Source of the DNA: Bacilli bacterium
GTDB lineage: Bacteria > Bacillota_I > Bacilli_A > RF39 > UBA660
NCBI GenBank assembly: GCA_016302505.1
Contig: JAEDNL010000002.1
Span: forward strand, 297 to 64,296
Direction: 5' to 3'
Length of the DNA: 64,000 nucleotides
This document shows, piece by piece, positions 9,094 to 26,100 of the stretch. Position 1 is the first letter of the stretch, and the number at the start of each line of letters is the position of its first letter. The notes under the pieces are model-generated. The model searched no databases. It saw only the letters and a list, made by a program, of their open reading frames with translations, and was not told where the DNA came from. The position numbers and the translations under genes were made by a program.

Positions 9094-10209
9094 ATGAGGT
9101 GCATAGCGAATGTTTTTTTGAAACAAAAAGCTAAATGCATTCTTAAAAATGTAGAAATACTTATTAGTCACGAAGTTACCCCATTTCCTAAGGACATAGA
9201 AGAATTTGAAGTTTGTATTGATAAATTTTATGAAGATTTTATGTTTGGAAGAAGGGATATAACTGTAGCTTTAGAAGAATACACTGATATTTTTGAAAAG
9301 TATAATATAACTAGTATCGTAACTAAAAGAATGCTTTTACTTATATTTGAGAATGTTGTTGATTATTTAGACTTAATTAACAATCCTGATTTATTTAATT
9401 GGTACTATTTAGTTGCTAAACTATTACTATTAAATTTAATATTTGAAGAGTATTCTAATTCAATTACTGAAAAGAAATATAGTTATGATGTAATAATAGA
9501 TACGTTTACTAAAAGATATAGTACATTGTTTGATGATAAAATTAAAAATTTATTTGAAAATAATTATACTAAATTAATTAGAAATATCAATAAAAATAAT
9601 AAGGCGACTGAGAAGTGTTTACATGAATTGCAAAAAAGTCCATTAAGAGTAAATTTTGAATTAATGGGTAAATATAATGATACTTTTCATTATATTTCAA
9701 AAATTAATTTTGATAAAAAAGTGTTTAATGGAATAGATATGAATCATGCTTTTGATGCTTTTCAAAAATATAATTACTCAGTTGAATTTAAATATATTGA
9801 GGCTGAGAATATATCATTTGAAGTCATTAAGAATGTTTTTGGTAATAAACCTAATACATTATACTTTATAAAACTTCCTTTTAATTTTTTTAGATTGAAA
9901 AGTAATATTACTAGACTGATAAATGTTATTGAAGCAAAAACTATTAAATATTTTGTGTTTTTAGTACCATATGATGACATAATAAATAAAACAACTAAGA
10001 TACAAGAATTTAAGAATTTAGGCTTTAAAATTGGAGTCTATAATATGAAAGAAGCTGAAACAAAATCTATTAAATTAAAGGGTATTATTGATTATTTGTA
10101 TCTAAGGCCATCTGAAGTATCTAATTATAATGAAATAATTAAATTTGCTAAATCTATTGATACAATTATAATAGAAAATGAGCAAAATAATTATAAAATC
10201 TATAAGTAG
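9094..10209 (+). CDS. Cytoplasmic protein of unknown function; C-terminal half resembles a catalytically degenerate EAL-like fold
   Basis: ATG 9094 follows GAGGAGG; the track's TTG 9067 is less likely. No TM or signal peptide. The C-terminal block order YFVFLVPYDD / NLGFKIGVYNM / IDYLYLRPSEV / IDTIIIENEQ mirrors the EAL blocks (lvlEitE / lGv-alDDFG / vd-lKiD / viAEGVE) but with the catalytic residues replaced. By-eye similarity only. Confidence 0.5.
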   Translation: MRCIANVFLKQKAKCILKNVEILISHEVTPFPKDIEEFEVCIDKFYEDFMFGRRDITVALEEYTDIFEKYNITSIVTKRMLLLIFENVVDYLDLINNPDLFNWYYLVAKLLLLNLIFEEYSNSITEKKYSYDVIIDTFTKRYSTLFDDKIKNLFENNYTKLIRNINKNNKATEKCLHELQKSPLRVNFELMGKYNDTFHYISKINFDKKVFNGIDMNHAFDAFQKYNYSVEFKYIEAENISFEVIKNVFGNKPNTLYFIKLPFNFFRLKSNITRLINVIEAKTIKYFVFLVPYDDIINKTTKIQEFKNLGFKIGVYNMKEAETKSIKLKGIIDYLYLRPSEVSNYNEIIKFAKSIDTIIIENEQNNYKIYK

Positions 10210-10216
10210 GTGATTT

Positions 10217-24700: not shown

Positions 24701-26100
24701 AAAATACTCTTCCTACTAATGTTAAAGACTATATTTATCCAACTGGATATATAATAGGAAGTTATAAATATGGTTCATTACCATATGATATAGGAGAATA
24801 TTCTATAAGAGAAGTAACCGTTAAAAATGCAGTTGGAACTAATGTTACAGGTTGGGAAGTAATAGAATATCATGGTGCTGATATAACAAGTACATTTAAT
24901 TTAACTTCTCCAATAAGTAAAGATGGTAAAAATTATAATATAGTTTCTATTGGACCATATGCGTTTTATGGAGTATCTGTATCTAGTGGTCAAACTTGGG
25001 AATTTGTACTTCCAAATAGTGTTGTACAAATAGAAGATTATGCATTCTATAAAACAGATATAACTAAAATAAATGGCAATCAAATTTCTAGAGTAGGTAA
25101 ATATGCTTTTGCTGACTGTGAAAATTTAACTAATGCTATATTTAATAGTGTTATTGTAGCTGATGATTATTCATTCTATAGTTGTAGTAAAATCACATAT
25201 ATTCAATTTGGATCTGGTACTACTACTATTGGTCAATATGCATTGTGGAATCCATATCAAGGAGGACCATCAACAACATTAAACATGCAAGTATCAGCAG
25301 TACCTAATACAGCATCAAATGCTCTTCCTGAGTATGAGGTTGAAACTTTCATAGGTATAACTATAGGTTATAAATCTAATTTTACATATAGTGTTCCAAA
25401 TTCAGTATCAAATACTTTCTCAAATGCGGTTCCATGGAAATATCATAATAATTCTCCTATATATTTTTCAAGTGATTACTTATATATAGTTGATGGTGAT
25501 ACTGCTATAATAACTGGTTATACTGGTACTGGTGCCACTAATAGTAGTTTAGTTATTCCAGATACTGTATCTGGATATAGAGTTACTTCAATAGCAGCTA
25601 ATGCATTTGATAATAATACTTATGTTACCGCAATAACATTACCTTCATCAATGAATAAATTAAGTGATGGCTTTTTAGATAATAATAAAAATATTGCTAA
25701 TATTTATGTTGATAGTGCTAATACATCATTTAAGAGTGTTAATGGTATTCTTTATGATTATGGTGGGACTATATTAATGAGATATCCAAATGGTAAAAAC
25801 GCCACATCATTTACGATACCAAGTAATGTTACAACAATAGCATATCGTGCATTTGCAAACAATGTTACATTAACAAGTGTTACATTTAATTCTTCATTAG
25901 AAACTATCGGTGCGTATGCGTTTGATGGGTGTACGAATATAAGTTCATACACATTTAATAGTGATGTACCTGCTTTAACAGCGTATGATACATTCAATAA
26001 AGATAGTTTGATATATATGTATGTCCCTGGCACATCATTAAATAATTATAGAAATGATGTATATTTTAAAGAATACACAAGTTATTTGTTATCTAATTAA
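18769..26100 (+). CDS. Giant (2443 aa) surface protein: cytoplasmic Lys-rich tail, SipW-type signal/anchor, TasA-like domain, beta-helix-like region, BspA-type leucine-rich repeat arrays and two CBM2-like inserts
   Basis: The N-terminal ~125 aa are Lys-rich. The TM ends in DAYSWFYSEYQS. GTKISLGTVVHEIT...YIVIKNTGSLDLDYNLSF is TasA/camelysin-like. There are many I-G-x-x-A-F/Y-x-N LRR units (IGSGAFENV, IDSYAFYED, IGAYAFYNN, IGDYAFYNC...). Two CBM2-like modules lie at about 22126-22425 (WQQGTGYRFGGTINIKNNTSAEIKDWTIRISL) and about 23590-23890 (GWGTNRTYTNSCTVTVKNNTDKTLNSWTTTVSL). Confidence 0.8.
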   Translation: MKRSINKIYNTIVNYLIESFHMSKNKIKKKIKRLKNKLKKFYYYEIIGIVAISVYFYKSVKKLYDSKYVVLLRNNIKKYYEIIRNKALEYFNKYKIYLNTAKKENTKKIKEYKNEYSKYMTKPILAKAFVILILSVFVIYDAYSWFYSEYQSRGTKISLGTVVHEITHYDSSGKIIGEHGDTITVIEEDDLSNTFKNTQYIVIKNTGSLDLDYNLSFTLDGTMSNAGVLYYRVLDITDEVNAQTITSSSTKLETYALNNPTPEALETDAVNPVSNLTTIPQLIIKGQIDKDKDDDENNYRYYRIDYGMYQTVNSSLYSGASVAVHANVYSTQRGIDYSLSQEGQIWLVENETQFRDAVLNALSGDTIKLADNIKVDGSIDFGRRVHIDTDIYNLEITGDLVYDFVEMGSLNINTSAGGKLDVGANLYMNTPKSKIHFIGTNKDYDIFVGSKFTVNGIQNEEEDGVLIEATRIIKNKAGNIPVDVYVMSNTRITIAPNVEIGYLIAEKNATNIEILNNGTITQIQLQDMNLIDTFSKYQIYVYNLNKILGVLGGSSIMLPENSTPYIGPNKGNTLIIKGVSSNDITVSGSDNFTDKDINIGAPDDSVFPIQGEEDSYYVYIRDNNETLEGLLTAYFTEIDENTVGEKINNIKKLIIYTINSAYFENEDFAYVNTSLPKIEYLGLSNATVIDGKTINKIADNTLSNKTSLRTLILPKTVTTIGSGAFENVNLGRIYSDKAFEFLTIPSTVTSIGSNAFKSTRYVTFEGQVPPTIESGAFNLDINGSKFFVPMGAIKAYENVENINAENIYYEAKLSDNKQYFLYDYKDGYGISYFINTVSIGDSLTIPNTLTLNSINKTITAIGYNAYRNLNTSSSGASMTIPTTVELIDSYAFYEDNITNINLDNVKSINDYAFYKTKLTILESDTINKIGSYSFYNVPLTKVMLENVSEIGAYAFYNNTTLYELNLGQVKIIGDYAFYNCPQLGRVWFKNTSTVVKNNSEEIDLTVGENSVFTNWGMYLDGRLRVYVPNGSSKDGLNYLDGYKKLFQANESFIYPTGTIIGSYKHVAIPYDFGEYSLRAVTKKNGAGEDVTAYEIIEYHGADLTSEYQLPDVIVTDENLSATISGSSWQQGTGYRFGGTINIKNNTSAEIKDWTIRISLPTGVTWGNCYGNANETVNGSIVTLKNKEYNGTIAANGQMSLSFYYDTSSQSLEASIDSVYSSTSAVMNVISIGEYAYRHTTTVQGQTIDLVANGLLNIDDHGLENISVKSLTSDSLISIGDYGLYNTALQTVNLPNLNSLGKYAMSDMDTLYSVNLGNIQVMKENSISNNPNLEQIFIGTINTDNMSVHSTAMNNIGTNANDRLRIYVPKSKVEFYKALFSNYSEYIFETGYIVGSFINTPIPYDIGEYSVKEVTIKDRSGNDINGWQIIEYHGEDITNTFEIPESYTVNGITKDVISIGDYAFKHTSVNTSDGTDIVNNKLIKIGNHCFEEITAIKSFSSTSLLELGSYAFNKSGIVYMNIENIKSIGSYAIANMTTTYKLNLGKVSNMEPNALYNLPNLLQTFFNPTTETRVFDKYSITDVGTQTADRMRFYVSSTEVTETQTDTKQIDINVTESCNESSSGWGTNRTYTNSCTVTVKNNTDKTLNSWTTTVSLNGHSLKSGSVNNAVYESNSSSLIFTNTNSNGTINPNESITFTYTLTGRTSRRNGKYLSNSIGTYTESKTVTYDDFVTEEYASSFRSEYYDYFFDYGTILGNFTSTNVPYDIGEYSVVLREYTKKDGEVVTGYEIVEYHGMNLTSSYIIPESLTVNNNTYPVIGIGKNAYRFATMATGNTLDISNTSLLYVNNYAFYKLGIRNLILQNTEYIGQYTFFNNSLYKVTLSGLNHVDNYAFANNTLLNYISLGYVSIIGEGAFYGCSNIEQMYFSTTEVDNSSNSVKISIGSNAFYNTGTTIGKRLRIYVPDDNLGTTSVTYQQAYKNTLPTNVKDYIYPTGYIIGSYKYGSLPYDIGEYSIREVTVKNAVGTNVTGWEVIEYHGADITSTFNLTSPISKDGKNYNIVSIGPYAFYGVSVSSGQTWEFVLPNSVVQIEDYAFYKTDITKINGNQISRVGKYAFADCENLTNAIFNSVIVADDYSFYSCSKITYIQFGSGTTTIGQYALWNPYQGGPSTTLNMQVSAVPNTASNALPEYEVETFIGITIGYKSNFTYSVPNSVSNTFSNAVPWKYHNNSPIYFSSDYLYIVDGDTAIITGYTGTGATNSSLVIPDTVSGYRVTSIAANAFDNNTYVTAITLPSSMNKLSDGFLDNNKNIANIYVDSANTSFKSVNGILYDYGGTILMRYPNGKNATSFTIPSNVTTIAYRAFANNVTLTSVTFNSSLETIGAYAFDGCTNISSYTFNSDVPALTAYDTFNKDSLIYMYVPGTSLNNYRNDVYFKEYTSYLLSN
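21931..24900 (+). repeat. Four copies of a ~55-aa conserved linker module spaced by LRR arrays inside the giant gene
   Basis: YPTG-x-I-[IL]-G-[SN]-[YF]...[IV]PYD[FI]GEYS...(T/N)G[YW]-[EQ]-I-[IV]-EYHG-x-[DN]-[LI]-T begins near 21931, 22930, 24016 and 24736. The periodicity is coding, not a noncoding repeat. Confidence 0.75.

Follow-up and report, generated by a model that had tools for sequence, protein, structure and literature searches.

A conserved cluster of McrBC-like and SipW-type signal peptidase genes in gut Bacilli: a candidate GTPase-coupled surface filament or adhesin apparatus

Introduction

What does a set of genes for secreted surface proteins do with the GTPase of a restriction system? 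The question is raised by eleven genes (g1 to g11) at positions 9094-26100 of the window, as the whole analysed stretch of 64,000 nucleotides from contig JAEDNL010000002.1 of a Bacilli bacterium will be called. Alongside an McrB-like gene and its McrC-like partner, this ~17-kb cluster encodes two signal peptidases of the SipW type, a group of exported proteins whose signal segments end in the same motif, and a giant protein of LRR_5 repeats. An earlier note on this DNA, made from the letters alone, described it as a greatly expanded TasA/SipW-like fibre island with dedicated peptidases; it left the McrB-like/McrC-like pair uninterpreted and missed the name CoCoPALM, under which such an arrangement has been reported. 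Judged by its predicted architecture, the locus fits the CoCoPALM class. Its exported proteins bear no detectable relation to TasA, and we consider it somewhat better than an even chance that the locus builds a surface filament or adhesin apparatus whose parts are SipW-processed and whose assembly is coupled to a GTPase.

The McrBC-like pair as conserved core

CoCoPALM is a large clade named in one paragraph of a survey of McrBC systems (Bell et al., eLife 2024; PMC11090510). According to that paragraph, the GTPase is fused to an FtsB-like transmembrane (TM) plus coiled-coil domain, the McrB and McrC homologues both carry coiled coils, and genes of the signal peptidase family are linked; the function is given as "likely pilus assembly" and deferred to a later paper. 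The clade adjoins the CoCoNuT defence systems in the McrB tree, and its signature is NxD, not NxxD, usually followed by D or E (PMC11090510). A literature search for the name CoCoPALM returned no follow-up. The window contains each of the named parts: an McrB-family AAA+ GTPase, its fusion to a TM segment and coiled coil, a DUF2357 partner with a coiled coil, and linked signal peptidases.

The GTPase is g5. A profile of its homologues matches the AAA+ domain of Escherichia coli McrB in the PDB (6hz4, 6ut6 and 7vsr, E 1e-5), with an alignment that covers Walker A, Walker B and the NTAD region, and g5 itself matches the McrB model PRK11331 at 5.8e-5. Its invariant N361-N362-D363-D364 can be read as NxD followed by D, while HMMER aligns the same residues gap-free to the N-T-A-D of E. 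coli. Within residues 47-86 lies a strong TM segment, followed by a charged, heptad-like stretch that resembles a coiled coil. This TM plus coiled-coil architecture agrees, as predicted, with the CoCoPALM description; homology to FtsB proper is weakly supported, an FtsL-type model matching g5 at 0.0068 and an orthologue at 0.12.

The partner, g6, carries DUF2357, the N-terminal domain of McrC, at 1.6e-12, and has no TM segment. Searches of Pfam, NCBIfam and the PDB returned no nuclease family for g6, although an inactivated nuclease-like fold may still be present in it. Orthologues that are longer (677-828 aa) were considered as possible carriers of a nuclease; inspected by eye, their extra length is mostly K/E-rich charged coiled coil, and no nuclease family was found in them.

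How firmly the pair belongs to the cluster was gauged by a scan of one genome per species, which gave at least 599 matching stretches, 585 of them confirmed; at least 585 species-level genomes thus carry a relative of the cluster. The best 80 loci were fetched, many of which end at contig ends. The McrC-like gene directly follows the GTPase gene in 80/80, and at least one SipW-type peptidase (1-5 copies) is present in 79/80. Members of the g3/g7/g8 family are found in 58 of the 80, a g2-type anchor in 42, and a giant of more than 1000 aa in 51. By sequence identity no gene of the cluster is better conserved than g5: compared with four distant loci of the same gene order it keeps 60-67%, against 34-56% for the peptidases, 32-51% for g6 and 17-53% for the secreted proteins. 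Relatives of g5 number at least 8000 candidates, all with E at most 0.001, with identities of 65-97% for almost all of the 120 listed. Because g6 follows g5 without exception, a peptidase is missing from a single locus, and g5 is the best conserved gene, the sequence record marks the pair as the conserved core of the cluster rather than a passenger.

A third protein appears to travel with the pair. A profile built from the ORF (open reading frame) upstream of the GTPase gene in other loci matches g1 at 1.8e-9; in most other lineages, then, a member of the g1 family immediately precedes the GTPase gene. Inspection by eye had raised the idea of a degenerate EAL domain or cyclic di-GMP receptor in g1, which was dropped: one of 30 family members matches EAL, at E 0.027, and the PDB profile search returned only a designed TIM-barrel repeat.

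Three gene orders occur among the loci, and the window has the less common one; a relative with no more than 45% identity in g3 repeats this 11-gene order. In orders II and III, those of most other lineages, a further conserved protein (~310 aa) with an N-terminal TM segment and an FYF-x-S motif is encoded two genes ahead of the GTPase gene (for example L078:8071-8997 and L059:7969-8901); it has no counterpart in the window.

A shared signal end on the exported proteins

Five products of the cluster, g3, g7, g8, g9 and g11, have an N-terminal hydrophobic segment that is closed at its outer end by the motif [STA][YFW][AGS]W[FMY], just as the earlier note had reported. These are the only five matches in real ORFs of the window; one more falls in an ORF of 28 codons, and the six-frame expectation for the window is 0.43. 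The motif satisfies the -3/-1 rule of signal peptidases with a predicted cut before the tryptophan (S-Y-A↓W-F, the arrow marking the cut), such that mature g3 is predicted to start at W62 (WFTENTTVSVEDIEVTVDASNGIQISTDAQK) with an extension beginning WFTEN. The motif is kept in other lineages, where the signal ends read TYAWF (39), SYAWF (22) and TFAWF (14). A parallel exists in Bacillus, where the signal of TasA ends in T-W-A↓A-F and that of CalY in T-F-A↓Y-F.

Behind the signal, the proteins fall into a family and two outliers. A profile of 55 g3 homologues matches g7 (3e-16), g8 (4e-14) and g2 (1e-7), and on this sequence evidence g2, g3, g7 and g8 are true paralogues. What they have in common is a strand after the signal, an F-D-l-F strand in the centre and, at the C-terminus, the motif W-x-E-G-x-D-x-[DE]-C. 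For g9 and the N-terminus of g11, nothing but the signal motif is common with g3, and paralogy of g9 to g3 was not demonstrable with the g3-family profile. Of the three secreted paralogues that had been assigned to the second operon, the profile bears out g7 and g8. The assignment of g2 as an anchored paralogue also survives: besides its TM segment and its profile match, the family consensus after the TM segment, Y-x-G-G-x-F-T-[IV]-x-L-D, has no small residue at -1. Since this consensus offers no -3/-1 cleavage site, g2 is predicted to remain in the membrane as an uncleaved signal-anchor, and is the candidate basal anchor of the system.

The g3 family is large and nameless. None of 477 g3 homologues has a Pfam domain or a name; a library-wide profile search at E at most 1e-3 widens the superfamily to 4860 clusters at 50% identity and yielded no link to a named family, with close members among the matches listed. 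The AlphaFold2 (AF2) model of g3 is an all-beta sandwich (predicted local distance difference test score 83.8, predicted template-modelling score 0.79). In the family alignment (A1) a single cysteine is invariant, C343, inside an invariant W-x-E-G-Q-D-x-D-C, and further invariant residues are K94, N111, D177, E247 and N249; roles in binding a metal or in a BsaA-like isopeptide lock are conceivable for these residues. The C-terminal part of g7 gives weak matches to DUF4073 and CHB_HEX_C. The small protein g9 (121 homologues) is also modelled as a beta-sandwich, with a score of 82.4. In both models the region around the cleavage site (residues 55-68 of g3 and 29-38 of g9) is highly conserved and of low confidence in the monomer. 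Segments that are conserved yet poorly placed in a monomer behave as would be expected of a donor strand, for which they are candidates.

The giant g11 is of a different kind. Its N-terminus is a very basic cytoplasmic tail of 124 aa (33 K/R versus 8 D/E) ahead of a TM segment near residues 119-147, and its exported part matches LRR_5 at 2.7e-96 in nine stretches, CBM_2 at 8.6e-10 and the HupY/LrrG adhesin model at 2.2e-22. A sorting signal of the LPXTG type was not found at its C-terminus, nor was a recognisable cell-wall or membrane anchor in the protein left after cleavage. Since no cell-wall anchor is visible, cleaved g11 could be held only through its N-terminus; it is a candidate tip adhesin.

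Two loci elsewhere set g3-type genes in other company. In a "Bacilli bacterium" metagenome-assembled genome (L004/L005:7634-10981), an extra g3-type copy just downstream of an LRR_5/CBM_2 giant adjoins two A_ENA (endospore appendage) genes. The surroundings of P0103, a relative of g3 (L003:7020-19674), comprise a g2-type anchor, a g3/g8-type subunit and a giant of 2866 aa, and the gene of a GGDEF diguanylate cyclase lies upstream; in the 21 kb seen there, neither a peptidase nor a GTPase gene was found.

Two subtypes of SipW-type signal peptidase

Both peptidases of the cluster, g4 and g10, exceed the cut-off of 51.85 bits of TIGR02228, the model for signal peptidase I of the archaeal/endoplasmic reticulum (ER) type (scores in Table 1), and the two SipW-type enzymes that the earlier note had recognised are thereby borne out. 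On the equivalog model for Bacillus SipW they reach 110.6 and 81.7 bits, respectively; because both scores fall under its cut-off of 190, the enzymes are, by these models, SipW-type rather than orthologues of SipW. Each has a TM segment at its N- and C-terminus.

The two differ in their catalytic columns. The pattern in g4 is S-H-D-D-D, the canonical Ser/His/Asp set, and that in g10 is S-H-I-N-D, with Ser and His kept in both. The g10 enzyme represents a variant subtype in which the Asp of the GDN element is replaced by a non-acidic, mostly hydrophobic residue, and Ser, His and the last Asp are kept. In the peptidases that adjoin the McrC-like gene (66 loci with patterns listed), the GDN column always holds I, V, L or T, whereas other peptidase copies in the compared loci retain the Asp. 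The recurrence of a variant enzyme beside the McrC-like gene is in keeping with a specialised partnership.

Tests of a relation to TasA and camelysin

The similarity of the signal ends invites the question of whether the exported proteins themselves are TasA- or camelysin-like. Family models answer it in the negative. The paralogues match neither Peptidase_M73 nor TasA (NF046066), BsaA (TIGR04090) or the model of SipW-dependent signal peptides (TIGR04088) in Pfam and NCBIfam at E up to 0.1. TasA and CalY served as positive controls in the NCBIfam library and scored 513.8 and 103.6 bits on NF046066. On TIGR04088 the controls reached 38 and 50.6 bits against a cut-off of 19, while the best N-terminus of the window, that of g3, reached 9.4 bits and those of g7, g8, g9 and g11 had no match.

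More sensitive comparisons agree. Sequence and profile searches of the PDB with the subunit families gave no match, and when hhalign compared TasA plus CalY with the g3 and g9 families, the probabilities stayed below 1%; the alignment of g9 with TasA is collinear (signal, PG..f.f.N strand, last strands) but not significant (P 0.15). With the g3 model, Foldseek found nothing below E 0.1 in the PDB, FimA at E 0.11 with template-modelling scores of 0.19-0.34 being noise, and with the g9 model it found only generic immunoglobulin (Ig)-like or carbohydrate-binding module (CBM)-like matches scoring at most 0.41; TasA lay outside the top 50 in both cases. The neighbours of the two models are CBMs, sialidase lectin domains and Ig-like sandwiches. 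A viral fold search (BFVD) with g3 produced nothing below E 0.02. A TasA-like jelly-roll fold was thus not found for the subunits.

Membership in the TasA, camelysin or BsaA families was accordingly rejected by Pfam, by NCBIfam with its controls, by sequence and profile searches of the PDB, by hhalign and by Foldseek. The relation to TasA and camelysin on which the earlier note had built its reading is left unsupported by these results: the family searches it had proposed find no match in a library that recognises both controls, and the structure predictions it had proposed lead, for g3 and g9, to generic beta-sandwiches only; within the reach of these tools, this is the lack of structural kinship that it had named as counting against it.

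Distribution and vertical conservation

The relatives of the cluster are recorded under the titles uncultured Bacilli, Tenericutes, Mycoplasmatota, Erysipelotrichaceae and Clostridium sp. CAG. They derive from gut material (human, Hadza, rumen and other), with genome sizes of 1.26 and 1.55 Mb represented. The earlier note had called the locus an island. A prophage or mobile island was considered and rejected: a tRNA gene was not found in the 64-kb window, 2.9 million viral contigs contained one distant AAA+ match only (28% identity), and the flanks of the cluster vary between lineages with the cluster itself kept. The cluster is a vertically conserved chromosomal locus rather than an island.

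A proposed assembly route and its alternatives

The inventory of an anchor, a major subunit, minor subunits and a giant LRR adhesin suggests a filament system. Of the fibre idea in the earlier note, the SipW-type signal ends on a family of surface proteins and the filament-like inventory hold up, and the product is probably a filament; the homology to TasA is unsupported. In the assembly route that we favour, Sec would insert the five pre-proteins, which their N-terminal helices would hold in the membrane. The SipW-type peptidases would then cut before the conserved Trp and free the N-terminal extension (WFTEN... in g3), and the freed extension would serve as a donor strand that joins the beta-sandwich subunits head to tail. 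Polarity would be set by g2 at the membrane as strand acceptor only, g3 forming the stalk, g7, g8 and g9 acting as minor or adaptor subunits, and g11 sitting at the distal end. On the inner side, g5 would assemble into a membrane-tethered hexamer whose GTPase ring lies in the cytoplasm, capped by g6 and possibly also by g1, and this g5/g6 platform would organise, time or gate the hand-over of subunits and their cleavage. Because the gene order places the variant peptidase near the GTPase pair, the platform is envisaged to work with the variant enzyme encoded alongside. A restriction-type motor would here be re-used for envelope assembly instead of DNA or RNA cleavage.

Extended to the whole class, the proposal becomes more tentative and, in our view, likelier to fail than to hold: CoCoPALM may be an unrecognised surface-filament machine of monoderm bacteria, combining Sec export, cleavage by an ER-type peptidase, strand exchange and a restriction-derived hexameric GTPase that drives or gates the process, and may provide the main attachment organelle of these small-genome gut Bacilli, which probably depend on a host or partner.

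Several observations weigh against the assembly of a GTPase-coupled filament or adhesin apparatus. No sequence or structure relation to TasA, BsaA, type V pilins or chaperone-usher pilins was found, and the best fold matches, carbohydrate-binding and Ig-like, would suit surface proteins that do not polymerise equally well. Polymerisation is presumed, the structure models being of monomers only. To our knowledge, the known SipW/TasA-type fibres need no NTPase, and for that reason the role of the GTPase is one that we infer entirely. A third archaeal/ER-type signal peptidase lies outside the cluster (window 3452-4105, forward strand, 108 bits on TIGR02228); the SipW type may thus be the general enzyme of this organism rather than a dedicated one, which slightly weakens the idea of dedicated peptidases. 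Finally, residues 202-323 of g5, in the AAA+ domain, match the candidate anti-phage model PDC-M26A of PADLOC 2.0 at 2.1e-37.

The main alternative accepts most of the genes' assignments and denies the polymer. The cluster would mature individual glycan- or host-binding proteins, displayed as non-polymerising adhesins or lectins, and the GTPase pair would be a membrane quality-control or sorting factor. The lectin- and CBM-like Foldseek neighbours, the CBM_2 and LRR_5 domains of g11 and the failure to detect homology to filament subunits all speak for such a display. Three features sit poorly with it, namely an uncleavable g2 anchor alongside several cleavable paralogues, post-cleavage N-terminal extensions that are conserved but disordered, and a g11 without a recognisable anchor once cleaved. 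An anchor paralogue, conserved extensions and an anchorless giant are more easily explained by attachment of subunit to subunit, and we regard non-polymerising display as unlikely, though it deserves to be taken seriously.

A structure linked to division or to the envelope at large is improbable. Here an FtsB/FtsL-like module would target the GTPase to the septum, and the secreted paralogues would form a sheath or a surface-layer-like coat that bacteria with such small genomes require. The stated FtsB homology of the class (PMC11090510), the weak matches of the g5 N-terminus to the FtsL model and the presence of the locus in many small-genome lineages (1.26-1.55 Mb) are in keeping with this. 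However, so weak a similarity may reflect no more than a TM segment and a coiled coil, a cytoplasmic GTPase implies a topology opposite to that of FtsB, and linked division genes are absent from the loci examined.

Slightly less probable again is a defence system against phages or other invaders, belonging to the CoCoNuT-like branch of McrBC; its membrane GTPase would sense infection, and its secreted proteins would serve as effectors or shield or remodel the surface. Arguments for it are the homology to McrB and McrC, the PADLOC candidate match and the McrB tree, in which CoCoPALM lies beside CoCoNuT (PMC11090510). Set against these, no nuclease or effector domain was detected, and of the ten smaller products only g5 matches a defence model in PADLOC 2.0 (g1-g4 and g6-g10 have no match; g11 was outside that scan). 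Defence islands are typically patchy, whereas this cluster keeps a stable gene content across at least 585 species with the high conservation of g5 given above; nor do a window lacking a tRNA gene and a single distant viral-contig match point to defence.

Least probable, to the point of being hardly tenable, is a chaperone-free matrix fibre of the TasA/TapA/SipW type whose operon happens to enclose an unrelated McrBC-like restriction module: it has on its side the SipW-type peptidases, the TasA/CalY-like signal ends, the PDC-M26A match of g5 and the normal role of McrBC as a defence system, but the GTPase pair accompanies the peptidases in 79-80 of 80 species genomes as the most conserved part of the locus, this pair is membrane-anchored and showed no nuclease or DNA-binding domain, and family models and fold searches for TasA were negative with positive controls.

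Layout of the cluster and its surroundings

The eleven ORFs lie on one strand with intergenic distances of 2-23 nt or slight overlaps, the sole exception being the 114 nt between g4 and g5 (Table 1). The earlier observation of the cluster is confirmed. The genes are tightly packed, two of them encode archaeal/ER-type peptidases, and the signal motif is confined to them among the real ORFs of the window. The proposed start of the first gene is likewise supported, its ATG being preceded by a GGAGG site.

The division into two operons by a terminator and a promoter is sustained in part. The promoter-like site ahead of g5 is present, in a consensus scan that produced fewer sites in total than shuffled sequence did. 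The hairpin between the operons has an A/T-rich stem of 8 bp, a folding energy of -7.7 kcal/mol and z = -2.1; the consensus terminator scan did not call it, and it is at most a weak or partial terminator. A two-operon layout with likely read-through is plausible.

Table 1. Genes and putative regulatory sites of the cluster, in coordinates of the window (aa, amino acids; nt, nucleotides; RBS, ribosome-binding site)
Feature	Position	Strand	Remarks
Promoter-like site upstream of operon 1	9034..9062	+	TTGAAT-17-TATAAT, 10/12 matches, consensus only
g1, 371-aa cytoplasmic protein	9094..10209	+	RBS and ATG; no TM segment; no Pfam match
g2, 231-aa membrane-anchored paralogue	10217..10912	+	TM 18-49; g3-family profile match
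g3, 365-aa candidate major secreted subunit	10935..12032	+	S-Y-A↓W-F at residues 59-63
g4, SipW-type signal peptidase I	12056..12610	+	TIGR02228, 94.0 bits
Weak terminator-like hairpin between operons	12624..12649	+	AAGAAAGA-GAAA-TCTTTCTT, then six T; GAAA loop
Promoter-like site for operon 2	12667..12694	+	TTGTCA-16-TATAAT, 11/12, joint best score within 8300-27000
g5, 520-aa membrane-tethered McrB-family GTPase	12725..14287	+	TM, coiled coil and AAA+ domain, in this order
g6, 369-aa McrC-like partner	14301..15410	+	DUF2357; K/E-rich C-terminal tail
g7, 384-aa secreted paralogue	15413..16567	+	S-Y-A↓W-F; additional C-terminal Ig-like domain
g8, 348-aa secreted paralogue	16560..17606	+	S-Y-A↓W-F; g3-family profile match
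g9, 193-aa small secreted protein	17616..18197	+	T-Y-G↓W-M
g10, second SipW-type signal peptidase, variant subtype	18206..18757	+	TIGR02228, 94.4 bits
g11, 2443-aa giant (candidate adhesin)	18769..26100	+	A-Y-S↓W-F; LRR_5 repeats; CBM_2-like domain

Other parts of the window, all on the forward strand, hold further features. Just upstream of the cluster (8481-9013) lies what looks by eye like the remnant of an Sfp-type 4'-phosphopantetheinyl transferase, frameshifted from frame 2 to frame 1. An ORF of 864 aa without a Pfam match occupies 28280-30874, downstream of a gene for a PcrA-like helicase of the UvrD family. Positions 33242-47488 encode a class B sortase of 531 aa (TIGR03064, 164 bits), behind which a module of secreted or membrane proteins without annotation occurs in duplicate (pairs of 206/222 aa at 50%, 1063/1063 aa at 33%, 355/492 aa at 44% and 270/260 aa at 48% identity); this looks like a second, unrelated surface-structure locus.

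Significance

The cluster takes up ~17 kb in lineages some of whose genomes are as small as 1.26-1.55 Mb. The subunit superfamily comprises ~4,900 clusters (50% identity), and those examined all lack a Pfam family; together with the occurrence in at least 585 species this makes the system a large piece of functional dark matter of the gut microbiome. If envelope assembly is indeed what the GTPase pair works in, it would clearly exemplify the re-use of a restriction motor for a cellular task other than defence, and the route would be the first NTPase-dependent variant of SipW/TasA-style assembly. The signal motif, the assignment of anchor, stalk and tip, and the two peptidase subtypes translate into concrete, testable hypotheses.

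Comparison with known systems

The nearest functional counterparts are the matrix-fibre operons TapA-SipW-TasA of Bacillus subtilis, CalY/camelysin of Bacillus cereus and SipW-BsaA-BsaB-BsaC of Clostridium perfringens. Like them, the present locus has its own ER-type peptidase, substrates whose signals end in [ST]-aromatic-A↓aromatic-F, and an accessory or anchor paralogue in the manner of TapA. BsaA is reported to depend on SipW and to form polymers through exchange of N-terminal donor strands, which isopeptide bonds lock (PMC11580942). The differences are in scale and equipment. Those operons have 3-4 genes and no GTPase pair; here there are eleven genes, among them peptidases of two subtypes, an adhesin of 2443 aa and a GTPase pair that is obligatory. 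The subunits, moreover, are not recognised by the TasA, BsaA, Peptidase_M73 or TIGR04088 models and show no fold match to these families.

To E. coli McrBC the locus is tied by the AAA+ GTPase core, in which Walker A, Walker B and the sensor motifs align, and by DUF2357 on the partner protein. Here, though, a membrane anchor and coiled coil replace the DNA-binding N-terminal domain, no PD-(D/E)xK nuclease was detected in the partner, and the genes around the pair are those of secretion instead of restriction-modification.

The type V pili of Bacteroidota and the chaperone-usher pili offer a functional analogy. They too combine an anchor, a stalk, accessory subunits and a large tip adhesin, and in them, as proposed here, proteolytic removal of an N-terminal segment would be the trigger for strand exchange. 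There is no sequence or fold relation to either, the processing enzyme is another one, a cytoplasmic GTPase is added, and the host is labelled Bacilli/Bacillota, lineages that are monoderm as a rule.

The closest likeness is to CoCoPALM itself, with its FtsB/FtsL-like TM plus coiled-coil GTPase, its DUF2357 partner with a coiled-coil tail and its linked signal peptidases. We know of no experiment on any CoCoPALM member, and the single paragraph devoted to the class does not describe its substrates. The present analysis works out for CoCoPALM the cognate [ST]-[YF]-A↓W-F signal class, the families of anchor, major and minor subunits and the giant adhesin, together with the g1 family, the two peptidase subtypes, the three gene-order architectures and the host range.

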